Positions 37,264 through 64,000 of a stretch of DNA of 64,000 bases are shown piece by piece; the first letter of the stretch is position 1; each line of letters begins with the position of its first letter. This DNA is from Bacteroidota bacterium (GTDB taxonomy: Bacteria; Bacteroidota; Bacteroidia; UKL13-3). The stretch spans positions 51,801 to 115,800 of the forward strand of contig JBPXJS010000052.1 of assembly GCA_051715425.1 (NCBI GenBank), in the 5' to 3' direction. The translations under genes and the position numbers were made by a program. The notes below the pieces were generated by a model. It was not told where the DNA came from and ran no database searches. It saw only the letters and a program-made list of their open reading frames with translations.

Positions 37264-37932
37264 CTATACAATAAAATACCCTTTACGGATGGCATACATG
37301 ACTAATCCGGCAGTGTTTTTTGCTCCTGTTTTTGCGAGCAGTCTGTTGCGATAATTTTCAATGGTTTTTGGGCCAAGGTTTAGCATGGTGGCAATTTCGG
37401 CATTGGTGTATTCAGAGCAAATCAGTTTTAGCAACTCGGCCTCCTGCTCGTTTAACTCTTCACCGGTAACACTTCTGTTTTCTCTGAAAGTATCTTTATC
37501 TACAATACTTTTAAGCAGCCTCAGGGAAATATTATGGTTAAAATAATAATCCTGATCCATCACCGTGCGTATAGCATCCACAATTTCATCGGGTGAAGAA
37601 TCTTTTAGCAAATAGGCGCTGGCACCGGCTTTAAACATGTTTACCACATGAAAATGGTTTTCGTAAACGGAGAGACCAATTACTTTAATGGCAGGATATT
37701 TTTGTTTAATCATATTGGTTGTTTCCACCCCGTCCATTCCTGTCATTTTCATGTCAACCAATATCACTTCAGGTTTTTGTTTTATTGCCTTAAGCCAAAC
37801 CAGCAGGTCTTCCCCGCAGGAAACATCAGTCATTATTTCCAGGTCCTCAAATGGCTGTAAGGAGGCCATCAATCCTCTTCTGAAAATCTGATGGTCGTCT
37901 GCAATAGCTATATGAATTACCGGATTTATCAT
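37264..37932 (-). CDS. NarL/LuxR-family response regulator
   Basis: IADDH, VILVDMKM REC domain; C-terminal TNAEIA...KTIENYR...KNTAGL LuxR HTH. Confidence 0.93.
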   Translation of the reverse strand: MINPVIHIAIADDHQIFRRGLMASLQPFEDLEIMTDVSCGEDLLVWLKAIKQKPEVILVDMKMTGMDGVETTNMIKQKYPAIKVIGLSVYENHFHVVNMFKAGASAYLLKDSSPDEIVDAIRTVMDQDYYFNHNISLRLLKSIVDKDTFRENRSVTGEELNEQEAELLKLICSEYTNAEIATMLNLGPKTIENYRNRLLAKTGAKNTAGLVMYAIRKGYFIV

Positions 37933-37941
37933 TTTATAAAA

Positions 37942-38742
37942 TTAAACAACAGGTATGGTAACATCAACCCGAATACCCTTATTTTTTTCGGACGTAAAAA
38001 CAATGGTACCGTTTAATGCACTTACCCGGCTTTCCATGCTCAACAATCCCAGGCCTTTTCCTTTTTTCTCTTCCACATTCATTCCCACCCCGTCATCGGT
38101 ATAAGTATAAACCAATTTATTCGTTTTGTTTTTAATATCAATAGACGCTTTTCTGGCACCTGCGTACTTTATGGTATTGTTAAGCAACTCCTGGGTTATT
38201 CTGAAAACAGCCTTCTCTATATCTCCAGGCAAACGTTCGGGTTCGCCTTCGTAATAATAGTTAATTTGCAGTTTGCCCGACTCATTTATTTTATAACACA
38301 TATCTGTAATGGCATCAAACAACCCAAAATCGTTGAGCACCACAGGCATTAATTTTCTTGAAATATTTCTGGTTTCGTTAATAGATTGTTTGTTTAACTC
38401 CTGCATGGAGTTTATTTGTTTCAGTATGGAAGGCTTATCTATTTCATTTTCTTTAAGCCTCGATTCCATGGTATTGAGGTTCATCAATAAGGTGGTAAGC
38501 ATCTGGCTCAGGCTATCATGGAGCTCGGCAGCAAACTGTTCCTTTTCGTTTTCCTGTGTGGCAATAATGGCCTCGAGCATTTTTTTCTGGTTGGCCATTT
38601 CCATCTCATGCAATTGCACCTTATGGTTAAGTCTTCTGCGTTCGTAAAGAATCACAAACAAAAATATAAATACAAACACCACGAGCATAATCATGGTTCC
38701 TGCAATAAGGATAAGGTTTATTTCGCTGTTCGTTTGCTGCAT
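37942..38742 (-). CDS. HisKA_3 histidine kinase with one N-terminal TM helix and no sensor domain
   Basis: AAELHDSLSQ H-box, QELLNNTIKY N-box, DDGVG, GLGL. Confidence 0.9.
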   Translation of the reverse strand: MQQTNSEINLILIAGTMIMLVVFVFIFLFVILYERRRLNHKVQLHEMEMANQKKMLEAIIATQENEKEQFAAELHDSLSQMLTTLLMNLNTMESRLKENEIDKPSILKQINSMQELNKQSINETRNISRKLMPVVLNDFGLFDAITDMCYKINESGKLQINYYYEGEPERLPGDIEKAVFRITQELLNNTIKYAGARKASIDIKNKTNKLVYTYTDDGVGMNVEEKKGKGLGLLSMESRVSALNGTIVFTSEKNKGIRVDVTIPVV

Positions 38743-39382: not shown

Positions 39383-39694
39383 CTAATTATTTAGTGAGTT
39401 TGCCATACCGCATTGGGATGGACAAGGTTTCGAATAATCCGCGACTACCCCATCAACCATATCGTTCTCATTGGCATCTGCCCCAACAAGGATAAGTTGC
39501 TGTGTTCCGTCATCGTCTAATGCATAATAAATCCGGATGCCTTCGCACCCCTCCTGTGCCAGAATTTCATTTAAAATATCTTTCCCAAAAAAGTGGGCCC
39601 TGATTCCTTCTGAATTGGCGTTTCTGTAATTGGCAGTCCAGGATGCTGCCTTGCTGAGCTCAATTGGAGCTCCTTCTGATCCGTTGAATGGCAT
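39383..39694 (-). CDS. Small protein with C-terminal PCPxxC motif
   Basis: 103 aa; GIRIYYA, LILVGAD, DYSKPCPSQC; first gene of the signalling operon; probable -7 TAAATTCG at 39729-39722. Confidence 0.8.
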   Translation of the reverse strand: MPFNGSEGAPIELSKAASWTANYRNANSEGIRAHFFGKDILNEILAQEGCEGIRIYYALDDDGTQQLILVGADANENDMVDGVVADYSKPCPSQCGMANSLNN

Positions 39695-39844: not shown

Positions 39845-39882
39845 AGAGTGTTTTCACTCTATGAAAAGAGTGTTTTCACTCT
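39845..39882. promoter_or_regulatory. Tandem palindromic operator, copy 1
   Basis: AGAGTGTTTTCACTCT at 39845-39860 and 39867-39882 (22-bp period). Confidence 0.85.
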
Positions 39883-40082
39883 TTATAAAAATACCCTCCT
39901 TTTTAGCCTCTAAAATACCCTTCTGCCAATTGAAAAAGATAAAATAGCCTGTGTTAAGCCAACGTTTAACAAAAAATCTCTTTTTAACAGGGTAATTGAG
40001 CCTATTTACCTAAGCATCAAAAGTTAAGGCTCGATTTCGACACCCGCAATATCATTTTTTGAATAAATTATTCGCAAAAAAA

Positions 40083-40151
40083 AGAGTGTTTTCACTACTT
40101 AAAAAGAGTGTTTTCACTCTTGTATTGGGTAGGTATGATCAGGTAGTTTTG
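40083..40151 (+). promoter_or_regulatory. Tandem operator copy 2 plus promoter
   Basis: AGAGTGTTTTCACTAC 40083-40098, AGAGTGTTTTCACTCT 40105-40120; TTG 40120-40122, 21 nt, TAGTTTTG 40144-40151. Confidence 0.85.
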
Positions 40152-40178
40152 AATTTCCTAAACCTAATAACCACCATT

Positions 40179-40808
40179 ATGAACTATTTTATCTTTTGGG
40201 CAACCCTTATTTTGCTTGCCTTTATTATTCTTGTTCTCGATAAAAAATTTGGTATGCTGCGCGATAACAGCACTGCCAGTCCCAGGCCTTACAGTTTTTC
40301 CCGTGTGCAGTTGGCCTGGTGGAGCGTGATCATTCTTTCCTGCATTATCACGGTGATACTTGGAAGGCAATGGCAAATTCCTGACCTGAGCACCTCCACC
40401 CTTTATCTGCTCGGTATAAGCAGTGCCACCACGATTGGTGCTACCCTCATTGACCTGAGTGATCAAAACAATACCAATATCACCACACTGAATCAAAATA
40501 CCCAAAGTGAAAATTTCTTTCTCGATATCATGTCGGATAAAAGCGGGGTGAGTGTTCATCGGTTTCAGACAGTCATTTTCAACCTTGTTTTCGGGGTTTG
40601 GTTTATCAAAAACTTTTTGATGAATATCAACAATACCGCTATAGCTATAAATGATATTATTCCTCTGGTAACAGATAATAACCTGATACTGCTTGGAGTA
40701 AGTTCAGGCATGTACACGGCTATTAAAGCAACTGAAAACAAACAAAACAATACCAATACACCGGCCGCAACTCCTGCTGCCAACACAGAAGAACAACCCA
40801 TAGGCTGA
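40179..40808 (+). CDS. Multi-TM membrane protein (holin-like candidate)
   Basis: Start moved to MNYF (40179); hydrophobic segments with YSFSRVQLAWW, LLGIS, HRFQ, LLGVSSG; directly upstream of an amidase. Confidence 0.7.
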   Translation: MNYFIFWATLILLAFIILVLDKKFGMLRDNSTASPRPYSFSRVQLAWWSVIILSCIITVILGRQWQIPDLSTSTLYLLGISSATTIGATLIDLSDQNNTNITTLNQNTQSENFFLDIMSDKSGVSVHRFQTVIFNLVFGVWFIKNFLMNINNTAIAINDIIPLVTDNNLILLGVSSGMYTAIKATENKQNNTNTPAATPAANTEEQPIG

Positions 40809-40830
40809 TTAACACTATAATCCTAGAAAC

Positions 40831-41631
40831 ATGTCGACAGCAATTGAAACAAAATACAGCATTACCCCCAGGTACCTGCCCAAACCATCTAAGCGCAGGA
40901 GTGGTTTAAAAATAAACAAGGTGCGTTTTCTTGTAGCACACGATACCGGAAACCCCGGAAGTACAGCCGCCCAGAACGTGAGTTATTATACCAACTCTGC
41001 TCAGGTACAAAGTTCGTCTGCTCATTTATTTGTAGACGATAAAGAAATTATTGAATGTGTTCCCGCCCTTACATCAGATCCGGAAAAAGCGTGGCATGTA
41101 TTATACAATGTGCCAACCGACAATCAGCTTTATGGGGTAAATGCGAATGATGCAGCCATTGGCGTGGAGTACTGTTATGGCGGTAAAATAGATGCCGACA
41201 AAGCCTATGATAAATATGTATGGTTGCTTGCCAAATTGTGTTTTCAGTTTGGGCTGGATCCAAGCAAAGATATTGTTGGGCATTTTTTTCTGGACCCGGC
41301 AAGAAAAACAGATCCGCTTACAGGTTTAGCAGCCAGCCGCAGAACCTATGAGCAACTGATACGGGATGTGGTTGCTGATTTTGCCTTATTTAACGGGAAC
41401 CCCAGCGGCACCATACAGTCTCAGCCGTTTCAAACCACCGGAAAAGTGCTGGTAAAACTCAATCTGAGGGAAGCCCCCAATACGCGGGCAGGCGTGGTTC
41501 AGGTACTCACAGCCGGAACTCCGGTAACCATTACTGAACGCACCACCTCAGGGGAATCGGTAAATAATAACAATGTTTGGTTTAAGGATAACAACGGCAG
41601 GTGGTTGTGGAGTGGCGGGGTCACGTTATAA
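40831..41631 (+). CDS. N-acetylmuramoyl-L-alanine amidase (Amidase_2) with C-terminal SH3b, no signal peptide
   Basis: VAHDTGN, SAHLFVDD, AWH, IGVE, VGH, KTDP; LNLREAPNT...W SH3b-like tail. Confidence 0.88.
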   Translation: MSTAIETKYSITPRYLPKPSKRRSGLKINKVRFLVAHDTGNPGSTAAQNVSYYTNSAQVQSSSAHLFVDDKEIIECVPALTSDPEKAWHVLYNVPTDNQLYGVNANDAAIGVEYCYGGKIDADKAYDKYVWLLAKLCFQFGLDPSKDIVGHFFLDPARKTDPLTGLAASRRTYEQLIRDVVADFALFNGNPSGTIQSQPFQTTGKVLVKLNLREAPNTRAGVVQVLTAGTPVTITERTTSGESVNNNNVWFKDNNGRWLWSGGVTL

Positions 41632-41644
41632 ATCATTACCTAAT

Positions 41645-42289
41645 ATGAAAATACTGCTGCTCCAGGTACTCGCCTTTTCCATTTTTTTTCTGATTCTGTT
41701 TGCACTCACTTTTAATTTAGATTTTACTGCATCCATTCTTCTTTTTCTTCAAGACAATACCTTCCTTTCAGCCTGCACCAGCATATTTATTCTTGGTGCA
41801 GATATCCTACTTCCGGTTCCTTCCAGTGTGGTGATGTTGCTAAACGGCAAATTGTTTGGCATTGTTTCCGGAACGGTTATTTCCTGCGCGGGTCTTATGC
41901 TCTCCACATTTGCAGGGTATTTTATCGGCAAAAAAATAACCACCCGCCTGTCTTATTTTATTAACCCCAAACAGCAGGCCGAATCCGAGCGATTGTTTCA
42001 GAACTGGGGATTAATTATTCTCATTGTAAGCAGACCCATTCCATTGTTATCTGAAAGCATCAGCATCGTTGCGGGTATGCAGCGCATGTCATTTTCAACC
42101 TTATTTTTTTCTTCCCTGGCCGGTTCACTTCCGGGCGCATTTATCTATGCATATTATGGCGCTTTTTCCAATACAGAACAAAACCAATACCTGAGTTTTT
42201 TGCTGGTGGTTGCAATAGCATCTCTGGCATTTATCATTTCCCGATTACTAAAAACCCTATTTAATAAAAAACACTATGAGCTACTTTGA
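41645..42289 (+). CDS. DedA/VTT (TVP38) family membrane protein
   Basis: LPVPSS, SRPIPLLSE, AGM..M, GSLPG; start moved to MKIL. Confidence 0.82.
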   Translation: MKILLLQVLAFSIFFLILFALTFNLDFTASILLFLQDNTFLSACTSIFILGADILLPVPSSVVMLLNGKLFGIVSGTVISCAGLMLSTFAGYFIGKKITTRLSYFINPKQQAESERLFQNWGLIILIVSRPIPLLSESISIVAGMQRMSFSTLFFSSLAGSLPGAFIYAYYGAFSNTEQNQYLSFLLVVAIASLAFIISRLLKTLFNKKHYELL

Positions 42290-44387
42290 TTTTCCCAGAA
42301 TGAATTTTACCGGTTCGGTAACCATTAATGTCGGAACCGTAAACAATGATGATTACGGAGCCGGAGGCACTACCATAGCATCAGGACCCGGAACAGGCCA
42401 ATACCTCAGGTTATCCGACTCTGTGAATGTGCAGGCACTTACTTATGGAATGAGCGATTCAGAATTTATCACCTGGTGTAATACTCCACTTGATGTTACC
42501 TATCCGCCTCCACCTCCGCCTGCGGGACCCAGCCCTGTATTGCCCGGAGAATGGAATTATTATGGTGATATGGGTGTGACCTTTAACGGTGTAAATGTAG
42601 TTGGGGTGAATCTGGTAGATGGCACTTTACAAACTTCAGGCAATACTTTAATAGGAACCAACCTCTCTTTTAATAACGATGCCGGACGCAGCACTGCCCT
42701 TATCTGTGATGTAAATCCCGAGGATGTTCCCACCTCACAAATTTTTGCTGATGTAATGGCACTGCGCGATTCACAGGGCAATAGCTTATTTCAGGGGGCA
42801 CCATCAAAAGCCGTAACCCGGTGGATTAACTTTTTCCGTAATGCCAATTTACAGGGATCAGCCGGTGCTTCGGGCGTGTTTCAGCATGTTATTCCTATCA
42901 GCAATTTTCAGGATCCTGGCGTACAGCAAATACTAACCGCACTTGGATACACGGCCACCAATCAACCCGTTAACCCGGCTGGTTTTGTGGTAAGGTATTC
43001 CATTTATCAAACCATACCGCCTATTTCTCCCATGAATTATAGTAATTATAACGATTACAATACAGCATTAATGAACCTCTATAAGGAGCCATACCCTAAT
43101 AACCAAAACCCTGGTATTGGCACCGTGAGCGGAACCATTGGTTTGTACTATAGCGGAGAAATGCAATCCATTACCATGGGGCGTTACCTGATCCCACCTG
43201 CACCAACCGGAAACCCAACACCACCACCGGTTCCACCAAATATTCCTATGACTATGTTTAGCACAGGAACGTACACCACTAATAATGGTCAGGGTAATTT
43301 TCAACTCGGATCAGTAGTGGCGAAAATGTATCCTCCTGCCTCAGCATCAGGTACCGGGCGTATCACACTTGATGTGTGTAATGCATTTCCTGAAAACTAT
43401 GTTCCGGCATCCGGAACTAATCCTGCAACAAATAATAAATTTGTTTTTACAGGGTATAACGACAGTACAGGTATTATACTTGGTTATATTCCAAATGGAG
43501 AAACAGCTATTACCAAAATAGCCGATCTTAATTATGCCGATACTTCTCTTTATATTAATGGTGGGGGTTTGATGGATATTACCGGCATCTCCTCAACCAC
43601 CTTAACAGACATTCAAAACGGATCGCTTGTTATTGCCTTTACCAATAACGGAACTATTGGTGCTCCTTTACTTACCGAATGCGATTATATGATTGCAAGC
43701 GATCAGGTGGCTGTATATGCTGAACAAAATCAGACAAGCATTTTTTATCGCAATGATGCCCCCGTTCCTGTAAATTGCTGCGTAAATGTTTATTATAAAG
43801 GCAGCCCTATCACCAATAATGTTAGTCTAATTGTTCAGGAAGCTCAAACCACTCCAAATGTTCCGGGGCCAACCGGAGACCAGCTTACAGGCAACACTCA
43901 GACCATACTTGTTACACCATTAACAAACAATAATGTTCCACTTACTTTAGGCGTAGCAAACAGAGGTAATTTATTATACCGTGTTGCTATTGCAGATAGC
44001 TCATTGGCAACAGCATCACCAATGCCCTGCAATCAAATATACAGTTACGCATATCTAAATCTGGCTACTGATTTTTATATTAACCTGCGCGTATTGCCAC
44101 AGGATGATTACTCTGCATATATTGATAAAAACGGAAATGCCATACAAACAATCCCATGGACTTACTTATACAGTAATGTACTGCAATACTACAACCTCAT
44201 ATTCCCGGCAATGGGTTTGCATGTTCCTTTTGAAGAAGCTGTTTGGCAGGATCTGGCCGCAACCATCTATCAACGTGTAGATATCTCCAACTGGCCTTCG
44301 GTTATTTCCATGCCTCGTACCCGCGATCTCTCACAAACCCGCAGGCAACTCATTCAGGCATGGTGCAAACAATATATGCCCGCTTAA
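42276..44387 (+). CDS. VioB/RebD/StaD-like protein lacking the C-terminal ferritin-like domain
   Basis: N-terminal MSYFDFPRMNFTG..INVGTVN, WNYYGD, DVNP..SQIFA; C-terminal YYNLIFPAM...MPRTRDLS. Confidence 0.6.
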   Translation: MSYFDFPRMNFTGSVTINVGTVNNDDYGAGGTTIASGPGTGQYLRLSDSVNVQALTYGMSDSEFITWCNTPLDVTYPPPPPPAGPSPVLPGEWNYYGDMGVTFNGVNVVGVNLVDGTLQTSGNTLIGTNLSFNNDAGRSTALICDVNPEDVPTSQIFADVMALRDSQGNSLFQGAPSKAVTRWINFFRNANLQGSAGASGVFQHVIPISNFQDPGVQQILTALGYTATNQPVNPAGFVVRYSIYQTIPPISPMNYSNYNDYNTALMNLYKEPYPNNQNPGIGTVSGTIGLYYSGEMQSITMGRYLIPPAPTGNPTPPPVPPNIPMTMFSTGTYTTNNGQGNFQLGSVVAKMYPPASASGTGRITLDVCNAFPENYVPASGTNPATNNKFVFTGYNDSTGIILGYIPNGETAITKIADLNYADTSLYINGGGLMDITGISSTTLTDIQNGSLVIAFTNNGTIGAPLLTECDYMIASDQVAVYAEQNQTSIFYRNDAPVPVNCCVNVYYKGSPITNNVSLIVQEAQTTPNVPGPTGDQLTGNTQTILVTPLTNNNVPLTLGVANRGNLLYRVAIADSSLATASPMPCNQIYSYAYLNLATDFYINLRVLPQDDYSAYIDKNGNAIQTIPWTYLYSNVLQYYNLIFPAMGLHVPFEEAVWQDLAATIYQRVDISNWPSVISMPRTRDLSQTRRQLIQAWCKQYMPA

Positions 44388-44412
44388 CCAAACAGTACTT
44401 AAACTTAATTAA

Positions 44413-45864
44413 ATGAACACCATGAAAAAAATTCTTATCATAACCCTTTGTACCATGATTGGTGCATCGGTGTGGGCACAAAAACCTGCAAAAAAACAAC
44501 CTGCAAAACCAAAGGGGAATACCCCTATTTCTCTTCCTTTTCAATTTGGTTTCTATAATATCAATGTAACACCTGTTTCCAGCGATACACCCGGGCTGCC
44601 TTATCAATCATTTATAAGTGGGAGCAATGGCAACAATATCCTTATTGTTGGCGGAAGATCAAACGGATTTCACGGAACTGATGGAACAGACTCAGCCATT
44701 AACTTTCCGGCCTATTATTCCAATGCCAATTTTATTGTATATAACCCAACAACAGGTGTCATGCAAACAGCCCCTGTTCCGGCTGCATACCTTGATCAAT
44801 TGAGCTCTACCAATATGTTAAGTTACCAAAGTGGCGACACCTTATATGGTTGCGGTGGGTATGGAAAAAACAGTTCAGGCAATTATGTTACCTATAATGG
44901 TTTTTTTGCCATCAGTGTATCGCAAATGATTAATGCCATACTCAACGGTACTACCGCTAACCTGTCTCAATACATGGTGAGTACCCAAAATAATTACATG
45001 GCTGTTACAGGAGGTGAGTTGCTTAAAATGGGCAATTACTTTTATGTGGTAATGGGACAAAATTTTACCGGATTGTATGCTCCACCACCCCAACAAAACA
45101 GTGTTCAAATTTATACCAACTCCATACGTAAGTTTACTGTTACCAATACAGGAAGTGCCCTGAGTGTTTTGCTGGTTGACTCATTCACCGATGGCAACAG
45201 CCCCGATAGTACTTCCCGCTTTCACCGAAGAGATTTAAATGTGGTTCCCATTATCAATACAGATAAAAAACCGGGTATAGCAGTATATGGTGGTGTATTT
45301 ACCCAAAAAGTAAATGGTGTTTGGGTGAACCCTGTTTATATTACCCAAGGTGCAAACAACAGCACCAATGTAAATATTGATGCAAACTTTACTCAGAAGT
45401 TTAATCAATATGGATGTGCACAGGTATTGTGTTATGAACCCAATACCAATACCATGGTTACCAACCTTCTTGGAGGTATCAGTTATTATGCATATAACAG
45501 CAATGGTGTTTTATTGCCAGATGCGGCTGTTCCATTTAGTAAAACCATCTCCACGATTTTCAGAAACGCTTTTGGTAGTCTGGAAACCTATACTGCCTAT
45601 AATGCAGGATTGCCTGATTATGTTGGAGCCGAATCTAAATTTTTTCCTTTACAAAATTTGCTTTACAGTGGCAGCAATGAGATTATCGATTTGTCCAAGG
45701 TGCCTATTAACGGTAAACCAACCTTTGTAGGATATATGTTTGGGGGAATCCGTGCAACCTCTGCACAAAGCAGTACCATCAACCCTACTATGGCCAATAA
45801 AAAACTTTACCGCGTTTATATTACCAGAAGCATTATTTACCCGGTAAAAAAAACCACTAAATGA
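44413..45864 (+). CDS. Exported Kelch-like beta-propeller protein
   Basis: Signal peptide; repeated hhhGG blades (IVGGR, CGGYG, VTGG, YGGVF, LGGIS, MFGGI); FHRRDLN. Confidence 0.7.
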   Translation: MNTMKKILIITLCTMIGASVWAQKPAKKQPAKPKGNTPISLPFQFGFYNINVTPVSSDTPGLPYQSFISGSNGNNILIVGGRSNGFHGTDGTDSAINFPAYYSNANFIVYNPTTGVMQTAPVPAAYLDQLSSTNMLSYQSGDTLYGCGGYGKNSSGNYVTYNGFFAISVSQMINAILNGTTANLSQYMVSTQNNYMAVTGGELLKMGNYFYVVMGQNFTGLYAPPPQQNSVQIYTNSIRKFTVTNTGSALSVLLVDSFTDGNSPDSTSRFHRRDLNVVPIINTDKKPGIAVYGGVFTQKVNGVWVNPVYITQGANNSTNVNIDANFTQKFNQYGCAQVLCYEPNTNTMVTNLLGGISYYAYNSNGVLLPDAAVPFSKTISTIFRNAFGSLETYTAYNAGLPDYVGAESKFFPLQNLLYSGSNEIIDLSKVPINGKPTFVGYMFGGIRATSAQSSTINPTMANKKLYRVYITRSIIYPVKKTTK

Positions 45865-46952
45865 TCAAACGGTTTCTCTTTGTTATATATACATTGATTA
45901 CACCTGTTTTATATCTGAAAGCGCAGGAAAGCGACAGCAGCACAACTAAAAAAGTGCTGCTGTTGCCCGTTCCTGCTATTGGCAAAAGCCTGGAAACAGG
46001 TTGGTATTTTGGGGCGGTATGTTTGTTTAAATTCAAAAACTATTTTCGTACACCTCAATATTCCACAGCAAAGGCGGAGGTAAACTATACTTTAAACAAG
46101 CAGATTATTCTAAATGCCTCCTGGTTTGTTTACACACATGAGAATAAAAATATCATCATTGGCGATAACTCCTTTCTCTATTTTCCTGAAAACTTTTATG
46201 GCATTGGAAACAATACTACCGCTTCGGGCGAAATTTATTATACCGCCAAAAGAACCGAGCTCTATAACGCAGTATTATGGAAAATAAAACCACCCATATA
46301 CGCAGGTGTATCAACCAGAATTCAGGGCATTACCTCGGTAAATATTACCGGTACAAAAACAGAAATTAACAGGGAACTGGAAACCAATAATGCAGGTTGG
46401 GTTTACGGCATAGGCCCTCACTTGCTTATAGATAAACGCGACAGAATACTAAATCCATCTGCAGGCAGCTACCTGATAGACGCAGAAAATATCAATTTTC
46501 TTAAAGAAAAAAACACACAGGGAACTTCTGCATTCAGCAATATAAAAACAGATATCAGGCTTTACCACAAATTATTCAGCAATACCATTCTTGCCTGGCA
46601 ATATTACGGCCTTTACACGTTTGGAAATCCACCATACAGACTAACCGGACTTATGGGCAGCGATAGCCATATGCGCGGTTATTACCAGGGCCGGTACAGA
46701 GATAATAACTACGCTACGGTGCAGGCTGAGGCGCGTGTAAGTATTAAACCCTGGATAGGTTTTACCATATTCAGCGGAGTAGGCGAAGTGTGGAGAAAGG
46801 CTGCCGATGTTTCCATAGATACCATAAAATACACAACCGGAATCGGGTTTCGTTTAAGGGTAGATAAATCTGATCAGATTAACCTGCGACTTGATTATGC
46901 CATTGGTAAAGAAACATCCGGATTTTATGTGGCATTTGGAGAAGCTTTTTAG
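45861..46952 (+). CDS. Omp85/BamA-TamA superfamily barrel without POTRA domains
   Basis: MRGYYQGRYRD loop-6 motif, GIGFR, RLDYA, C-terminal GEAF. Confidence 0.85.
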   Translation: MIKRFLFVIYTLITPVLYLKAQESDSSTTKKVLLLPVPAIGKSLETGWYFGAVCLFKFKNYFRTPQYSTAKAEVNYTLNKQIILNASWFVYTHENKNIIIGDNSFLYFPENFYGIGNNTTASGEIYYTAKRTELYNAVLWKIKPPIYAGVSTRIQGITSVNITGTKTEINRELETNNAGWVYGIGPHLLIDKRDRILNPSAGSYLIDAENINFLKEKNTQGTSAFSNIKTDIRLYHKLFSNTILAWQYYGLYTFGNPPYRLTGLMGSDSHMRGYYQGRYRDNNYATVQAEARVSIKPWIGFTIFSGVGEVWRKAADVSIDTIKYTTGIGFRLRVDKSDQINLRLDYAIGKETSGFYVAFGEAF

Positions 46953-47022
46953 CAACCAGTTAAACAAAAAGTAAAAACCTATGTTAAATATTAGAATCGC
47001 ATTCATCAGCAACAACAACCCA

Positions 47023-47442
47023 ATGAACATTATTAATGATCTATCCGAAACCGGCAAAGTAATTACAAATGTGGGTGAGCTTATTAAACAAAACCGGTCT
47101 GGGGGACATCCAGAGCTTTATCAGTTTGTATTGTTATTAAAGGAGATAGGGCGTGAGCTTGAGCAGACCTACAGAAAACTTTTAAGATATGAAAACCCGC
47201 TGTCTCATTGTATTATGCTGGAGGAACACGCACGCAACCTGCATCATCATCTCCTGTTATATTCCAATGAGCAACTGGCATTAAACCTCTCAAATAAACT
47301 GCTACAGAAAAAATCTATCGACCATCTGTTCGACAGGGTACAGGCAGGTACGGTTGATCTAACCGATCTGAATAAAATTGATGAAGCAGCAGCCTGTTTT
47401 TACGATACAGCCGAAAAATTGCGCAAATTCTCGCATAATTGA
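47023..47442 (+). CDS. Hypothetical helical protein
   Basis: ORF in operon orientation; start uncertain (46981 or 47023). Confidence 0.6.
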   Translation: MNIINDLSETGKVITNVGELIKQNRSGGHPELYQFVLLLKEIGRELEQTYRKLLRYENPLSHCIMLEEHARNLHHHLLLYSNEQLALNLSNKLLQKKSIDHLFDRVQAGTVDLTDLNKIDEAAACFYDTAEKLRKFSHN

Positions 47443-47513
47443 GCTTTTTGCCTTAAACCTCTTGTCCTGCAAGGTTTTCCAACAATTTCGGCATAATTTA
47501 TACCGTAAAAAAA

Positions 47514-47582
47514 AGAGTGTTTTCACTCTCAAAAAAGAGTGTTTTCACTCTTGATTCCTATATGTTTCATTTACCATCTTTG
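47514..47582 (+). promoter_or_regulatory. Tandem operator copy 3 plus promoter
   Basis: Palindromes 47514-47529 and 47536-47551; TTG 47551-47553, 21 nt, CATCTTTG 47575-47582. Confidence 0.85.
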
Positions 47583-47702
47583 CTGTTCAGTTAATGTTAC
47601 ATAACCATGTCTGGCACGGGAAATATGGTAAGCGATATGGTGAATCACTTATTCACCCGGGTCAGGTTATGGTTTAGCTTCATCACCGCAACAAAAAAAC
47701 AG

Positions 47703-48041
47703 ATGGCACGAAAATTATTTGTAAACAATACGGAATACCTCATTCAGGGAACACTGGCCGTAAGACAAGGCTCCAATACAGGAACAGCGCTTTATACTGT
47801 TTCATTTACCATTAATCCGCGTACACAACAAAATGTGAACTATGGAGACCTTCATAACCCGTATGCTGACGGCCTTGAGGTATCCGCCATAGAAAACGGA
47901 ACAATTGTTCTTACAGAGCAAATAACCATGCAGGAAGGCGGTATCACAGATAAGGAGTTTAATACCAATGATACCATCTACATTAATATGAACGACAACA
48001 ATCATTTTATGATTACCGCAGCCAATACATGGACCATCTGA
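47703..48041 (+). CDS. Small beta-rich hypothetical protein
   Basis: Start MARK preceded by an A-rich leader; 112 aa. Confidence 0.65.
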   Translation: MARKLFVNNTEYLIQGTLAVRQGSNTGTALYTVSFTINPRTQQNVNYGDLHNPYADGLEVSAIENGTIVLTEQITMQEGGITDKEFNTNDTIYINMNDNNHFMITAANTWTI

Positions 48042-48063
48042 CACCTTTTTAAATACTCAATCA

Positions 48064-50262
48064 ATGACCAATATCCGAAACCTGTTTATTGCCGTCCGGT
48101 TGTATATGCCCGGAATTTTTTTCGTAAGCTTTATCTATTTTCTTTTTATAGGAATAAATCAGGGAATTGACGTGGTGGTACAGACAGGGGAATTTTTCTG
48201 GCATGGTGTGTTAGGTTGCACAGGTGTGGTTATCTGGGCGTTTTTAACATGGTATGCCTTAAGGGTGCTCAGTTATGCCCATCAATCTGCTTTTGGAAAT
48301 GAAGAAACACGCATATTACCCACCACTTTTCACCAAACATTTCCAAGGCTTATTTCATACCACTGTATAGTTAGTGTTCAAACCGCCATCTTAAATATTA
48401 TGCTCTTTAAAGCAAATATGCTTGCTATCTTCGGTTTTATTCTGGTTCAAACCCTTTTATTCTTTTTACTTTCGTCATGGTTTAAAGGTAAGGGGAACAA
48501 AATAATTATTGGCGGAGCAATAACCATAGCACTGCTATATATAGCAGGTTTGCTGGCCGGATTATGGATGAACCGGGTATATGCCACACCAGGGAATTTT
48601 CAACGTTATCAGTTTTGGCTGTTTGTAATTGCCATGAGCTTATTTGCTATACAGGTGCTTGCAGTCTGGTTATTTATTAAAAGAAGAAAACTGATAGATG
48701 AACAAATAGAAGACGGGGAGGAAAAGCATGTAACCTTTTCCATGAAAAGGCTTAAGCTAAACGATAAGTTTAAACCCGCAGAAAGTAAATATTTCAATGT
48801 CTTTCACCTGTTGTCTGCCGCCACAACCATTATATACCTTGCCGCCATATTTAGCATGGATATGGCTATCGCAATGGGACCTCTGTCATTTGCGGTAATT
48901 GCAATCGGGGTACTCACCGGATTTTTTTCTATTGTAAAATATGCCTCCATCCGCACACGGTTTAGCATTGGCCTGGCTATTTTACTGCTGGCCATTGTTG
49001 TTGGAAAAGTGGTTGATCCCTATGAAGTGCGCCTTACCCCATCATCGCAGGAAAATCAGTTTGCTCAAAGGCCGGATTTAAAAACGTACCTGCACAACTG
49101 GATACAACTGCGTGAGGAGCAACTGGACAACAGCCCTGATAAGGGGTACAAGGTATTTATTGTTTTAAGCAACGGAGGAGCATCAAGGGCAGGAAACTGG
49201 GTATGCAGTGTTTTATCAAAATTGCAGGATTCTTCTCTTAATATTCCCGGAAAATTTGCTTTTTCAGACCATGTATTATTTATGGCAGGAGCCTCCGGAG
49301 GCACCGTTGGTAACTGCGCCTTTTACGCCCTGCTCAAAGAGGATCTTACCCAACCCCTTTCGTCATTCAGCAGACACGCCCAACAATATTTTGCCGGAGA
49401 TTTTCTTACGTTTACCCTCGGAAGAATGTTGGGTCCCGACTTTTTCCGGCATTTTGTACCATTGCGTTTTATTGATGACAGGGCAGCCTCACTGGCAAAT
49501 GTTTTGGCCAACGGCTCTGCAGATCCGGTAATCAATTACCAGATGAATTGTAATATCAGTGAGGTATTTGATTACAGCGGACACCTTCCTGTTCTTATCA
49601 TTAACACCACCCGTGTTGATGATGGAATGCCTGGTGTAATAAGCACCATTCAATTACCCAAACACAGCCAGCGGATTGATGTATTAAAACTGCTTGACAG
49701 TATGTCGCTTACCAAAAGTCGTTTGGGTGATATGACCCTCAGCACCGCTTCCGTATTAAGCGCCCGTTTCCCTTATGTTTCTCCGGCAGGTTCTATTCTT
49801 AATAACTATTTTGTTGATGGCGGGTATTTTGATAATTCCGGTGCCGGCATTATTCTGGAATATGCGCAGGAACTGGAAACATTGTTAAGTGATACCACAG
49901 ATGCTTACCTGCAGCGTTATGGAAAAAAACTTGCTTTTTATGTATTACACCTCACCAATTCTCCAAAATCACAAACAGAACCGGAGCGCATTTCTCCGTT
50001 GGTAAATGATTTGTTTACCCCATTGCTTACACTTGGAGGTATGCAGGGCTCCAGCACCAAAATTGGCAATGGTATGCTTAAAAATTATTTCGTAAACCTG
50101 AATAAGAATGCAGATAGCAGCCTCTACGAGTTTAGCCTGTATAAGGACGATGAAGAGGAAGAAGCCTATCCCATGAGTTGGGTTATTTCTCAATACCAGT
50201 TACAACGGATGAAAGACCGATGTGCTCAGGAGGTTAATGATAAATTTCATTTGGTTGAATAA
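48064..50262 (+). CDS. Membrane-anchored patatin-like phospholipase
   Basis: Many N-terminal TM helices; SNGGASRAG, AGASGG (GxSxG), SARFPYVSP, VDGGYFDN. Confidence 0.85.
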   Translation: MTNIRNLFIAVRLYMPGIFFVSFIYFLFIGINQGIDVVVQTGEFFWHGVLGCTGVVIWAFLTWYALRVLSYAHQSAFGNEETRILPTTFHQTFPRLISYHCIVSVQTAILNIMLFKANMLAIFGFILVQTLLFFLLSSWFKGKGNKIIIGGAITIALLYIAGLLAGLWMNRVYATPGNFQRYQFWLFVIAMSLFAIQVLAVWLFIKRRKLIDEQIEDGEEKHVTFSMKRLKLNDKFKPAESKYFNVFHLLSAATTIIYLAAIFSMDMAIAMGPLSFAVIAIGVLTGFFSIVKYASIRTRFSIGLAILLLAIVVGKVVDPYEVRLTPSSQENQFAQRPDLKTYLHNWIQLREEQLDNSPDKGYKVFIVLSNGGASRAGNWVCSVLSKLQDSSLNIPGKFAFSDHVLFMAGASGGTVGNCAFYALLKEDLTQPLSSFSRHAQQYFAGDFLTFTLGRMLGPDFFRHFVPLRFIDDRAASLANVLANGSADPVINYQMNCNISEVFDYSGHLPVLIINTTRVDDGMPGVISTIQLPKHSQRIDVLKLLDSMSLTKSRLGDMTLSTASVLSARFPYVSPAGSILNNYFVDGGYFDNSGAGIILEYAQELETLLSDTTDAYLQRYGKKLAFYVLHLTNSPKSQTEPERISPLVNDLFTPLLTLGGMQGSSTKIGNGMLKNYFVNLNKNADSSLYEFSLYKDDEEEEAYPMSWVISQYQLQRMKDRCAQEVNDKFHLVE

Positions 50263-50309
50263 TACATCAGTCAATCAATACCACTGATGGTTTTAATCAG
50301 GCACAAAAA

Positions 50310-50335
50310 AGAGCCTGCAAGATTTTACAGGCTCT
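50310..50335. terminator. Intrinsic terminator between convergent genes
   Basis: AGAGCCTG...CAGGCTCT preceded by an A-run. Confidence 0.7.
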
Positions 50336-50356
50336 CTCCTATTTTTAACATCCGAC

Positions 50357-50803
50357 TTAGCAGCAACCAAGAAAATAAAACACAACGGATGCCAATACAC
50401 AACCTGTGATATGGTATCCGCCATCAATTAAATAACTGGCCATTGGTTTCATCTGATAAATAAAACCCATTGATATTGCTGAGGCCGCGGCTATCCCTAC
50501 TACCAGTCCGGATTTTACACAATGCATCATTCCTCCTCCGCCATCAGCATGACAGCTCATTTCACCACAGGAGGCATTACATACCCAGCATACGATAGCA
50601 CAAATAACCACCGTACATAAAAACGACATGGACATCAGTTTGCCCATATTCACTTTTTTCATCTCTTCCGGATCCATTTTTAATCCGTGACTGTTGGCCC
50701 AAAGGGTTCCCAACACTTTCTGATTATACCATAATGCTCCAAGAGCAAAATAAACAATAGCAGCGACAAGAATTTGCCACCAGAAATGCATCGTTGTTGT
50801 CAT
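50357..50803 (-). CDS. DUF1761-family membrane protein
   Basis: ILVAAIVYFALGALWY...LIDGGY. Confidence 0.8.
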   Translation of the reverse strand: MTTTMHFWWQILVAAIVYFALGALWYNQKVLGTLWANSHGLKMDPEEMKKVNMGKLMSMSFLCTVVICAIVCWVCNASCGEMSCHADGGGGMMHCVKSGLVVGIAAASAISMGFIYQMKPMASYLIDGGYHITGCVLASVVFYFLGCC

Positions 50804-51208
50804 AGGGTTTAAGGTTTAGTATACCCAAATGTAACAAAACCAGTGCATTAACAAAGAAACACTTTTTGCACACGTTAAAGATCATGATAAGAAACGCAGG
50901 CCATATTGTTTATGCCACAGATTAGCACAGATTAAATCATAAGGAAGGCTTCACGTCCGCTACGCTAAAGGCATGAGATTTAATTGATGTGCAGATGTGT
51001 TGAAGTGCCAACTGACTAACAGAGCACTGCGCACTACTCCCCAATGACTCCCACCTTGCGGGACAAGCAATGACGAGCATCCCGACTTAACACTTAAAAT
51101 TTAAAACTAAAATGCTTTCAACTTCGAACCAAAAACACTCATTTTCCTATTTCTCTCTGTTAAACAACAACTTAAGGTCATAAACCAACCCGGATGGCTA
51201 CAAAAAAA

Positions 51209-51277
51209 AGAGTGTTTTCACTCTCAAAAAAGAGTGTTTTCACTCTTGATTTATATAGGTATACCTCTTTAGGTTTG
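51209..51277 (+). promoter_or_regulatory. Tandem operator copy 4 plus promoter
   Basis: Palindromes 51209-51224 and 51231-51246; TTG 51246-51248, 21 nt, TAGGTTTG 51270-51277. Confidence 0.85.
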
Positions 51278-51295: not shown

Positions 51296-51619
51296 ATGAA
51301 AAATATTATTGGATCTTTTGTTTTTAATGATGAGGGTTATGGTTGTTTATCTGGAAAATGGAGTCATAAAGATGATAATGAGGCTTACCCTGAGTGTGCA
51401 AAATTAATAGAGCCTGATGGTACAGAATTGTATTGCGGTTTATACAAAACCGTTTGGATAGAAAGTGCCGGAAAAGCGGTTGACGGAACACTGAATATTG
51501 AAATGAATCCCGGAGATCACACTTATAAACTCAGTTGGAGCGTTGAAGCCCAACTTGCTTTCAGCGGACAGGGAATGATCCATAACGGATTACTTGTAGG
51601 ATCCTACTGGGAAAATTAG
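51296..51619 (+). CDS. Small predicted beta-barrel hypothetical protein
   Basis: Start moved to MKNII; alternating strand pattern ending LLVGSYW. Confidence 0.7.
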   Translation: MKNIIGSFVFNDEGYGCLSGKWSHKDDNEAYPECAKLIEPDGTELYCGLYKTVWIESAGKAVDGTLNIEMNPGDHTYKLSWSVEAQLAFSGQGMIHNGLLVGSYWEN

Positions 51620-51640
51620 CACACCTTAATACCTAACCAT

Positions 51641-53230
51641 ATGAAACCTGCACTTGTTATCTCCATTATTTTAGTAAGCTTTTGTTTCAGTTGTAAAACA
51701 AATACATACAAACAAGCTGTGCGACAGGAAAAAAGGGGTATCAGGCAGGCTTTTAAACGGCAAGGGGAAGACTCTGCCTTTTTCTATCATATTGTGCAGG
51801 TAAACCGCAGGGGATATCCTATAAGTCCTTATACCAAAGTGCCATTTAAGCGGAGTGGTTTTCTTATCCGCCAAATTAACTACCTGGAGAATAGGGATTA
51901 CTTTAAAAGCACCCACCTGAGCAGGCTGGTGGCTGAAATAAAGAAGGAGAATCCGGTACTGGAAACCTCCGGTTCCCTGTATGCAGATACCATTAACCTG
52001 ATGCTTTACTCTCATGGTGGCCTTGCAAGTAAAAACAGCAGTATAGAAGAAGCTTTCGAAAAATATGTAAAAATCAGGCAAAACAATCCTCACACCTTTC
52101 CAATATTTATTAACTGGAGTTCGGGATTGTTTTCCAGTTATTTTCAATATGCCACCGTGGCACGTAACGGGTATTTTGCCAAACCAACTTTTTTTACAGC
52201 GCTAAATGCACCAATCTATACAGGTGTTGATCTGGCAAGTTCTCTTTTATATGTACCCAAATCCCTGAATATGTTTTTGTTTTCAAAGTCAGAAAGTGTA
52301 TGGGCCAACAACTCCATTAAAAACGCCAACAGCATTCTTGCCGACACGATCAAGCCTTGTTGCATCAGCAAAGGTTGTTGTATACATACCAGCACCTACG
52401 ACCCCGCCAACGGTAAATTTATCAGAGGCTTTAATAAAGGTTATGATATTACCGGTGCTTTTACCGGGCTGCCTCTTTCCAATTTAGTGGCATCACTGGG
52501 TAAACCAGCCTGGCAAAACATGACCCGCAGAACCAAAGTGATGTTTCGTAATACCGAACAATTTAGTTACCGTGAAGTTAAAAGCTTAACTACCCAGGAA
52601 ACCAAAGCCCGCAGAAAAATAGCCAACTCATTAGAGGAGTATAGAAATATAGACCATTCCGGTCCTGCTGCTTTATTGGCCGAAGAACTGATAAAACTGG
52701 CACAAACTTACCCCACCAAGGTATTTAAAATTTCTGTTTTTGGCCATAGTATGGGAACCATGGTGATGAATGAACTATTTCGTTTATACGGACGAAGCCT
52801 GCCACCGAATATATATATTGACCATATTGTGTATATGGCAGCAGCCTGCAAAATTGTTGACTGGGAAAACAGCATTGAATCCTATTTGCGCAGCAGCCCT
52901 AAAACTCATTTTTACAATTTAACACTGAATCCTTACCGGGAAAAGCAGGAAAAAGTGGGCATTCCCATTCTGGAACTCATTGTACCTTCCGGTAGTTTGC
53001 TGGTATGGATTGATAAGATGTTTGAAGATCCGCACAGTTTTACCGACCGTACCCTTGGCAAGTATGATAATTTTGTGATGTCTTACTCCATATTCGATCC
53101 GCTGGTGCGTAGCCGAATTCATTTAAAGACATTTCCTTATGCCCCGCGAAAACACAAAGAATTGAAGATACCCATCAGGCATGGAGAAGTGGATGATTAT
53201 CATTTTTGGGAGGAAGGGTATTGGAAATGA
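51641..53230 (+). CDS. Alpha/beta-hydrolase lipoprotein
   Basis: FCFSC lipobox; YSHGGL, FINW, FGHSMG, YMAAA, RHG. Confidence 0.8.
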   Translation: MKPALVISIILVSFCFSCKTNTYKQAVRQEKRGIRQAFKRQGEDSAFFYHIVQVNRRGYPISPYTKVPFKRSGFLIRQINYLENRDYFKSTHLSRLVAEIKKENPVLETSGSLYADTINLMLYSHGGLASKNSSIEEAFEKYVKIRQNNPHTFPIFINWSSGLFSSYFQYATVARNGYFAKPTFFTALNAPIYTGVDLASSLLYVPKSLNMFLFSKSESVWANNSIKNANSILADTIKPCCISKGCCIHTSTYDPANGKFIRGFNKGYDITGAFTGLPLSNLVASLGKPAWQNMTRRTKVMFRNTEQFSYREVKSLTTQETKARRKIANSLEEYRNIDHSGPAALLAEELIKLAQTYPTKVFKISVFGHSMGTMVMNELFRLYGRSLPPNIYIDHIVYMAAACKIVDWENSIESYLRSSPKTHFYNLTLNPYREKQEKVGIPILELIVPSGSLLVWIDKMFEDPHSFTDRTLGKYDNFVMSYSIFDPLVRSRIHLKTFPYAPRKHKELKIPIRHGEVDDYHFWEEGYWK

Positions 53231-53907
53231 AAACAAAAAAAGAACAGAAGCCACAACTCGCCATTTTCGATCTGATTATTCTGATCCTTTCCTTTTATGT
53301 GCTGATTGCACTGGTGATTGACACATTTGTAACCCTTGATCCCGAAGTATCGCGCATGCTCAACCTGATTGACAATTTGGTTTGCCTGATATTTATTATC
53401 GATTTTATCAGAAACTTCAGACAGGCACCAAATAAAATTCAGTTTTTAAAATGGGGCTGGATTGATTTACTGGCCAGTATTCCAAATATAGATTTTTTAA
53501 GGGCCGGGCGTTTATTACGTGTAGTTCGTCTGATCAGGGTTATCCGGGCCTTCCGCTCTACGAAATTGCTGGTTGATTATATCTTCAGAGACAAACCGCG
53601 TGGAGCATTTGCATCTGTTTCTATCATAGCTGTTCTGCTTTTACTTTTTTCTTCTGTAGCCATATTGCTGGTAGAAACGGATCCGGAAGCCAATATCAAA
53701 ACTGCAGAAGATGCCATCTGGTGGGCATTTGTAACCTTAACCACTACCGGCTATGGAGACCGTTATCCGGTAACCACCGAAGGCAGGCTTATTGCAGGCG
53801 TGCTGATGGTAGCCGGTGTTGGCCTTTTCGGAACCTTTACCGGATATGTGGCTTCGTGGTTTGTTGGCGGACAGGGGGAGGGGAAAACAAATGATGAAAT
53901 AACCTGA
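53227..53907 (+). CDS. 6-TM voltage-gated potassium channel (KvAP-like)
   Basis: WIDLLASIP, S4 RAGRLLRVVRLIRVIRAFR, filter TTTGYGD; ATGA overlap with the upstream stop. Confidence 0.92.
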   Translation: MKTKKEQKPQLAIFDLIILILSFYVLIALVIDTFVTLDPEVSRMLNLIDNLVCLIFIIDFIRNFRQAPNKIQFLKWGWIDLLASIPNIDFLRAGRLLRVVRLIRVIRAFRSTKLLVDYIFRDKPRGAFASVSIIAVLLLLFSSVAILLVETDPEANIKTAEDAIWWAFVTLTTTGYGDRYPVTTEGRLIAGVLMVAGVGLFGTFTGYVASWFVGGQGEGKTNDEIT

Positions 53908-63810: not shown

Positions 63811-64000
63811 ATGGACTTTAAAGACCAAATTAAACTGTTAGGCGAAAGAGTGAAAAAACTCAAAGAACAGGTTCAAACAGAAGAAGCTACCAAGAATGCT
63901 TTTATTATGCCATTTATCAAAGAGCTGGGATATGATGTTTTCAACCCATACGAAGTAACACCTGAACTCACAGCAGATATTGGCATTAAGCAAGGAGAGA
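63811..64000 (+). CDS. Type I restriction HsdR N-terminal-like endonuclease domain protein (partial)
   Basis: Hand translation MDFKDQIKLLGERVKKLKEQVQTEEATKNAFIMPFIKELGYDVFNPYEVTPELTADIGIKQGE; runs off the window end. Confidence 0.8.
   Translation, partial: MDFKDQIKLLGERVKKLKEQVQTEEATKNAFIMPFIKELGYDVFNPYEVTPELTADIGIKQGE

Follow-up and report, generated by a model that had tools for sequence, protein, structure and literature searches.

Operators and genes at the locus

The stretch analysed here (the window) comprised 64,000 nucleotides, positions 51801-115800 of contig C52 (JBPXJS010000052.1), from the genome of a Bacteroidota bacterium (G000; 4.27 Mb, 40% GC, 54 contigs). It contains four tandem pairs of a 16-bp palindromic unit, AGAGTGTTTTCACTCT, beside a two-component signalling operon on the minus strand and three operons on the plus strand. 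The pairs are treated below as operators; their promoter context, their distribution and the protein that probably binds them were analysed.

A pattern scan of the window located exact units at 39845, 39867, 40105, 47514, 47536, 51209 and 51231. The unit at 40083 had two mismatches and ended CACTAC. When up to three mismatches were allowed, nine matches were obtained against 0.50 expected, a number reached by 0 of 100 shuffles. The ninth match (63847-63862, minus strand, two mismatches) looks like chance. All four pairs had a 22-bp period and an A-tract before every unit; coordinates, period and A-tracts were as given in the initial annotation of this DNA. The unit was a 6-4-6 palindrome, AGAGTG-TTTT-CACTCT, with a directional TTTT centre, and not the NarL-type 7-2-7 repeat proposed there.

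Bacteroidota sigma-A promoter elements (-33 TTG, -7 TAnnTTTG) were present at copies 2-4. At these copies the TTG started on the final T of unit 2 and the -7 box lay 21 nt further on, as previously claimed for the last three pairs. Both strands were examined at copy 1 and neither a TTG nor a -7 box was present at the canonical offset. Start positions were estimated by setting the -7 box at -12 to -5, the span given for flavobacteria in PMC9723704. Counted from starts estimated in this way, the unit centres of the window copies would lie at -43.5 and -65.5. The elements were as follows.

39845..39882, plus strand: tandem operator copy 1, both units exact; lies 151 bp in front of position 39694, where the signalling operon begins on the minus strand
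40060..40073, no strand assigned: second palindrome, TGAATAAATTATTC, just upstream of copy 2; equal offset in 9 of the 35 tandem places described below
40083..40120, plus strand: tandem operator copy 2, unit 1 ending CACTAC; TTG 40120-40122; -7 box TAGTTTTG 40144-40151; estimated start approximately 40156
47514..47551, plus strand: tandem operator copy 3; TTG 47551-47553; -7 box CATCTTTG 47575-47582; estimated start approximately 47587
51209..51246, plus strand: tandem operator copy 4; TTG 51246-51248; -7 box TAGGTTTG 51270-51277; estimated start approximately 51282

Operator distribution across the genome

A genome-wide scan, which the initial annotation had put forward as a check, returned 68 matches at two or fewer mismatches, against 4 for a reversed-pattern control. 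A search for two units 22 bp apart returned 36 rows, which correspond to 35 tandem places because one inverted pair was read on both strands. These places were distributed over 10 contigs, with 10 on C52 and 25 on nine others. Ten of the 35 lay within 42 kb (C52:91645-133662), adjoining the two-component genes.

The consensus of the tandem places was A7 - unit - nAAAAA - unit - TG - ~21 nt - (T/G)AnnTTTG. TG directly followed unit 2 in 29/36 rows. A TTG ended 29-31 nt past unit 2 in 31/36 rows and a TTTG in 28/36; where the TTTG ends at +30, the unit centres would move one base nearer to the start estimated from the flavobacterial span above. A co-oriented open reading frame (ORF) started within approximately 330 nt at 31 of the 35 places, the others being C8:488398, C9:228118, C41:44199 and window copy 1. 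Both the TTG/TTTG offsets and the co-oriented ORFs were tallied by hand from the site tables.

Twenty-three sites were classed as lacking a shared leader, a class (23/35) set by a simple text rule of the script that flagged 12 of the 14 cassette-type places described below, so that two cassette-type places are counted among the 23. At these sites the information content of the flanks was approximately zero, with the units, the TG/TTG and the TTTG conserved. Because the flanks are unrelated and yet the units are almost invariant, the pattern points to selection that has kept the tandem units as a protein-binding site, rather than to copying. The 35 places were not scattered in the manner of a repetitive extragenic palindromic (REP) or miniature inverted-repeat transposable (MITE) element: 31 were co-oriented with a downstream gene, and flanks were unique at the leader-less sites.

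Two other readings of the repeat were considered and rejected. In copies 2 and 4 the units share the reading frame of the ORF that follows, but most places lie outside ORFs, and a coding repeat was therefore rejected. A direct-repeat site of LytTR or AraC type, suggested by the 22-bp period, was set aside since the single unit is already palindromic and, from lineage to lineage, its two halves vary in concert.

In 9/35 places unit 1 was closely preceded, at constant spacing, by a second palindrome, (C/T)GAATAAATTAT(T/G)C (for example window 40060-40073, C52:119176, C52:123092, C2:360186, C7:25241 and C9:291681). This element could represent a third, degenerate unit, or else a second factor may bind there. 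As a separate regulon, scanned as CGAATAAATTATGC, it was too weak to be retained (77 genome matches at two or fewer mismatches, against 52 for the reversed control).

Two head-to-head unit pairs, at C9:233889-233926 and C9:278342-278378, lay between divergent genes without the TTG/-7 geometry, and may be bidirectional control sites. A lone exact unit was also present at C9:277-278 kb.

Outside G000, the exact tandem pattern gave no match in scans of metagenome_contigs or viral_contigs. The genome_contigs scan returned one other species, Pedobacter chitinilyticus.

The signalling operon and its relatives

The signalling operon upstream of which copy 1 lies consists of four genes, given here from last to first.

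37264..37932, minus strand: response regulator, receiver plus GerE/LuxR-type helix-turn-helix (HTH) domain (Response_reg 8.9e-22, GerE 5.4e-10); proposed binder of the palindrome
37942..38742, minus strand: histidine kinase, HisKA_3 (41.3 bits) plus HATPase_c (46.2 bits), with one N-terminal membrane segment
38718..39374, minus strand: multi-pass membrane protein whose ORF shares 25 nt (38718-38742) with that of the kinase, an overlap kept in orthologous modules
39383..39694, minus strand: 103-aa protein encoded by the first gene of the module; member of a family confined to Bacteroidota, in which a C-terminal CPxxC is invariant

The description of the adjacent gene as a NarL-family regulator was borne out by its receiver (77.8 bits, cut-off 30.2) and GerE/LuxR-type HTH (39.2 bits, cut-off 23.5) domains and by its position next to a HisKA_3 kinase. 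The protein scored below every NCBIfam equivalog cut-off (MctR 128 vs 300, UvrY 125 vs 280, NarL 105.5 vs 250 bits) and, by the last of these, is therefore not a NarL equivalog.

Profile searches of Pfam and NCBIfam gave no family match for the membrane protein, which is the probable sensor partner of the kinase. Overlaps of 19-31 nt between the membrane-protein and kinase ORFs were also present in G021, G019 and G025, and the retention of the overlap suggests that a split sensor may be made by translational coupling. Homologues of the 103-aa protein were present in 38 of the 119 family genomes, with up to five copies in G021. This protein had no match in Pfam or NCBIfam, and only unnamed Bacteroidota clusters matched in Atlas. 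Its AlphaFold model, made from an 11-row alignment, had a mean predicted local distance difference test score (pLDDT) of 77 and gave no PDB fold match at E<=0.001.

Fifteen loci containing the best regulator homologues in related genomes (42-66% identity) were compared. In 9/15, N6-TTTT-N6 units were present 60-190 bp upstream of the module or of the regulator gene, as follows.

G021: unit AGAGTGTTTTCCCTAC, two copies, period 22
G019, G105 and G108: unit TTAGGGTTTTCCCTAA/T, two to three copies, period 22
G106 and G109: unit AGAGGGTTTTCCCTCT, two copies, period 23
G017: unit AGAGGGTTTTCCCTCT, beside a solo regulator gene
G110: unit AGAATGTTTTCATTCT, beside a solo regulator gene
G128: tandem pair, on the contig of the regulator itself

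Since the regulator genes of G017 and G110 are solo genes that have the motif, the motif follows the regulator gene itself. Half-sites were lineage-specific (AGAGTG, AGAGGG, TTAGGG, AGAATG), and the palindrome has been kept, because in several lineages both halves differ from those of G000 alike. The recognition helix, K-T-[IV]-E-N-Y-R, was conserved in 12 of the 15 aligned orthologs, which fits a common A-AG-G half-site skeleton. In G118, where the regulator is 61% identical, the G000 unit was used exactly, with 4 exact copies and 5 of 9 matches on the contig of the regulator.

A strict tandem pattern (GTTTTCMCT-N13-GTTTTCMCT) was scanned in the 119 family genomes. It was present in seven, with 34 matches in G000 and 1-6 in the others; the reversed control gave 0 everywhere. 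A regulator ortholog (E<=1e-42) was found in 18/119. Six of the seven strict-motif genomes also hold the ortholog, a co-occurrence that overstates the support because related genomes are not independent. Targets carrying the motif were themselves orthologous in two cases, a 175-aa plus tail-collar operon in G019 and a membrane-protein plus amidase operon in G021.

The assignment of the sites to the adjacent regulator, as initially made, is well supported by comparative genomics, which ties the regulator lineage to the palindrome family. Autoregulation through copy 1, also proposed initially, fared less evenly: units upstream of the module in relatives support feedback control, which could be of either sign, but copy 1 itself is off the canonical geometry on both strands.

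Proposed mechanism and its main alternative

Each 16-bp unit is probably bound by one dimer of the NarL/LuxR-type regulator encoded alongside (37264-37932), as judged from the genome comparisons above. The split sensor, formed by the membrane protein and the HisKA_3 kinase, would phosphorylate the regulator on receipt of a signal, which we guess to be envelope-associated. Two regulator dimers would then occupy the tandem units, centred at approximately -43.5 and -65.5 if the flavobacterial span holds. At a spacing of 22 bp, the two dimers would lie on roughly one face of the helix. The promoter-proximal dimer would abut the -33 TTG and recruit sigma-A RNA polymerase to the -33 TTG / -7 TAnnTTTG promoter. 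Approximately 31-33 transcription units would be switched on together, and the signalling operon would feed back on itself through copy 1.

Activation by polymerase contact is favoured over repression. The arguments are the fixed offset from the core promoter, the position just upstream of the -33 element and the precedent of the LuxR dyad, the lux box, which is an inverted repeat centred at -42.5 according to PMC3376562. A class II activator site would be centred at approximately -41.5 to -43.5 and abut the upstream promoter element at a fixed offset. Here the offset was fixed within 1-2 nt in 31/36 rows, and the proximal centre would fall at -43.5 if the estimated start holds.

Several observations weigh against binding by this regulator or against activation. 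The nearest unit was 0.9-2.6 kb away in the G118, G115 and G104 loci, and no unit was found in the ortholog loci of G092, G086 and G025. Twelve of the 18 ortholog-bearing genomes lacked the strict tandem pattern, and G090 (87% complete) had 4 tandem sites with no ortholog at E<=1e-42. The recognition helix was constant where half-site positions 2 and 5 differ by lineage; a specificity switch through covariation of the helix was considered and dropped, the helix being conserved while the half-sites differ. P. chitinilyticus has one perfect tandem site but no module (L031 1462-1499, NZ_QMHN01000002.1). The -7 geometry there was the same, the 103-aa gene was absent, and the regulators of that genome were 38-40% identical. 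This orphan site is possibly a transferred cassette junction. In G000 itself a second NarL-type regulator gene, at C2:356281, lies 4 kb from the site at C2:360209, and the core promoter elements are near consensus, which would suit a repressor too.

The last two points belong to the best-surviving alternative, in which the operators and promoters are real but are bound by another protein, or the regulator is a repressor. Another binder could be the regulator at C2:356281, a dimer of Crp/Fnr type or some unrecognised factor; a repressor would occlude the -33 element of strong promoters and act as a silencer of accessory and defence genes. Promoters so close to consensus might fire unaided, and repression is common among defence and mobile genes. 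Palindromes of 5-4-5 or 6-4-6 form do not point to any single family, and a Crp-like gene follows the target at C8:598906. However, across genera the motif family goes with the lineage of the C52 regulator, solo regulator genes included, and no other DNA-binding gene was conserved beside the motif in the loci examined. The near-fixed offset, at which the -7 box and start are never overlapped, is typical of activators that touch the polymerase. This alternative is accordingly held to be unlikely, and activation by the adjacent regulator is preferred.

Putative target genes and cassette-type junctions

The three operons downstream of copies 2-4 in the window were as follows.

40179..47442, plus strand: target operon 1, encoding a membrane protein, an Amidase_2+SH3 peptidoglycan amidase, a VTT/DedA protein, a 703-aa protein, a 483-aa protein, an Omp85-like protein and a 153-aa protein
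47607..50262, plus strand: target operon 2, encoding a small protein, whose ORF is open from 47607, and a membrane protein of 732 aa without a family match
51296..53907, plus strand: target operon 3, encoding a 107-aa protein, a 529-aa protein (weak DUF676 esterase match) and an Ion_trans channel

Operon 2 had been given as 47703-50262; its end stands, but its small-protein ORF is open from further upstream. In the 732-aa protein (48064-50262), G-x-S-x-G and D-G-G motifs were seen by eye, as in patatin-like lipases. Targets on C52 outside the window included DUF900 and class-3 lipases, a carbamoyltransferase, a dioxygenase and three tail-collar proteins. Those on other contigs included two histidine kinases, a type IX secretion system (T9SS) multicopper oxidase and a methyltransferase, and T9SS sorting domains were present on some targets; together with the promoter type, these domains identify the genome as one of Bacteroidota.

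Fourteen of the 35 places, termed cassette-type, were found by alignment to share approximately 120 nt of upstream sequence and/or a leader of approximately 190 nt downstream, in front of unrelated genes including defence genes. A conserved hairpin of approximately 60 nt was present in the shared leader, approximately 130 nt downstream of the operator, with only 4 of its 35 pairs covarying. The leader with its hairpin was seen at L043:573-740, L047:5768-5929, L059:5745-5929 and four more cassette-type places of G000. An Rfam scan of five cassette-type loci left the shared leader unmatched. The only match was a group II intron fragment (D1-D4-2, 62.5 bits, E 1.9e-10) at L043 2905-3010, downstream of the dCTP deaminase gene on C2. 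The cassette-type places appear to be junctions of integron-like cassette arrays.

Twenty target-region proteins, hand-picked with a bias towards likely defence genes, were tested with PADLOC, and 10 of the 20, in 9 transcription units, gave anti-phage matches. These were dCTPase (2e-119), PDC-S31 (5e-55), AbiU (9e-101), a ThsB-like TIR protein, SoFic, PDC-S11, a type I methyltransferase, a mad8/HerA-like ATPase and a trypsin/EAD1 protein with a SIR2 neighbour. Eight of the nine PADLOC-positive units were cassette-type places. Two tandem arrays were noted by eye near the end of C46 (approximately 100-1300), where they lie downstream of a regulated gene; their units measure approximately 60 nt and 100 nt, and each has several copies.

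The shared sequences raise the question of whether the palindromes are recombination or mobile-element sequences without a role in transcription, either integron-like cassette-boundary sites or a REP/MITE-like repeat. The sharing of upstream sequence and/or leader between unrelated defence genes at 14 places would fit this, as would the leader hairpin, whose 19-nt core was also found in other genomes of the family, in one of which, G042 (L079), it lies just downstream of the apparent end of a tyrosine recombinase gene (read by eye); the orphan copy in Pedobacter points the same way. However, the units lie upstream of the hairpin and not inside it, and the 150 nt upstream of one cassette site folded no better than shuffles (z -0.17). 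Flanks are unique at the sites classed as lacking the leader, all directional sites face the downstream gene at the fixed -33/-7 offset, and even in genomes with just 3-6 sites a palindrome of this family has been retained next to the regulator gene. A recombination or mobile-element sequence without a role in transcription is thus very improbable. The weakest reading, with which the initial annotation began, is a small regulon confined to this island, with four sites, three operons and autoregulation. It was suggested by four pairs within 11.4 kb beside the regulator gene and is refuted by the 35 tandem places, which are spread over 10 contigs and in 25 cases lie outside C52.

With control by the adjacent regulator preferred, the ancestral core of the regulon, kept in related genera, would comprise three operons: the signalling one, the one for the membrane protein and amidase, and the one for the tail-collar proteins. 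The large expansion, including 14 cassette-type junctions in front of anti-phage defence genes, is specific to this genome. Regulon expansion in G000 accompanies a much larger accessory genome. Four genomes of the same genus, of 1.5-2.5 Mb (rounded; one is 60% complete), had 0-1 exact units, against the 4.27 Mb of G000.

A bolder proposal, which we offer as tentative and on balance doubtful, is that the two-component system is a single master switch of a combined weapons-and-immunity regulon that grew from 3-6 to 35 promoters by cassette capture and not by point evolution. As the cassette junctions carry the tandem operator, captured defence cassettes (dCTP deaminase, TIR, SoFic, AbiU, SIR2, type I restriction-modification and others) would be wired automatically to the sensor that controls lytic-enzyme and tail-collar genes. 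If true, it would provide a clear example of a single inducible sensor governing both anti-phage defence systems and antibacterial-type hydrolases, in a regulon expanded roughly ten-fold within a single lineage.

To our knowledge, very few transcription-factor regulons of Bacteroidota have been mapped other than those for polysaccharide use. No description of this system was found in a literature search made mostly at the level of abstracts. The finding offers a complete candidate regulon, with a proposed regulator, a precise operator, a fixed promoter architecture and approximately 31-33 target units. The near-invariant operator would make a compact orthogonal inducible promoter part for Bacteroidota genetics.

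Relation to known systems

Judged by its sequences, the system appears to be a NarL/LuxR-family two-component regulon, notable for its invariant operator, its approximately ten-fold lineage-specific expansion and its many anti-phage systems.

The 14 cassette-type places recall the integron-like or rAID-1-like cassette arrays of Bacteroidota, in that junction sequences are shared between unrelated defence genes. Unlike in those arrays, the operator-promoter element here is not confined to the junctions: it is found at chromosomal promoters of the ordinary kind and, in genomes that have no arrays, next to the regulator gene. In integrons the cassette boundary is attC, an imperfect hairpin. Here the operator region and its upstream flank, examined at one site, folded no better than shuffles, and the conserved hairpin lies in the leader downstream of the operator.

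In the LiaFSR and VraTSR envelope-stress modules, a single autoregulated operon encodes a NarL-family regulator, a membrane protein and a HisKA_3 kinase of intramembrane type. The operon described here likewise encodes a membrane protein, a HisKA_3 kinase and a NarL-family regulator. It differs in that Strep_LiaS scored 111 bits against a cut-off of 450, in that neither the membrane protein nor the 103-aa gene has a family match, and in its different phylum and far larger regulon.

The NarL and NarP proteins of Escherichia coli bind 7-2-7 heptamer sites, with a dimer on a 16-bp inverted repeat. The regulator here belongs to the same response-regulator superfamily, and its proposed sites are inverted repeats of 16 bp overall on which a dimer would bind. 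In contrast to the NarL/NarP sites, the halves are arranged 6-4-6 around an invariant directional TTTT centre, and the sites are near-invariant rather than degenerate.

The closest likeness in promoter position is to LuxR/TraR and the lux box. In both cases a protein with a GerE/LuxR-type HTH domain is paired, here by proposal, with a dyad site that abuts or overlaps the upstream promoter element, and the proximal centre estimated here (-43.5) is near that given for the lux box in the source cited above (-42.5). The regulator here is, unlike LuxR and TraR, a phosphorylation-controlled response regulator and not an acyl-homoserine-lactone receptor. The lux box is 20 bp, whereas the unit described here is 16 bp (6-4-6), is always doubled at a 22-bp period and is set in front of promoters of the Bacteroidota -33/-7 type.

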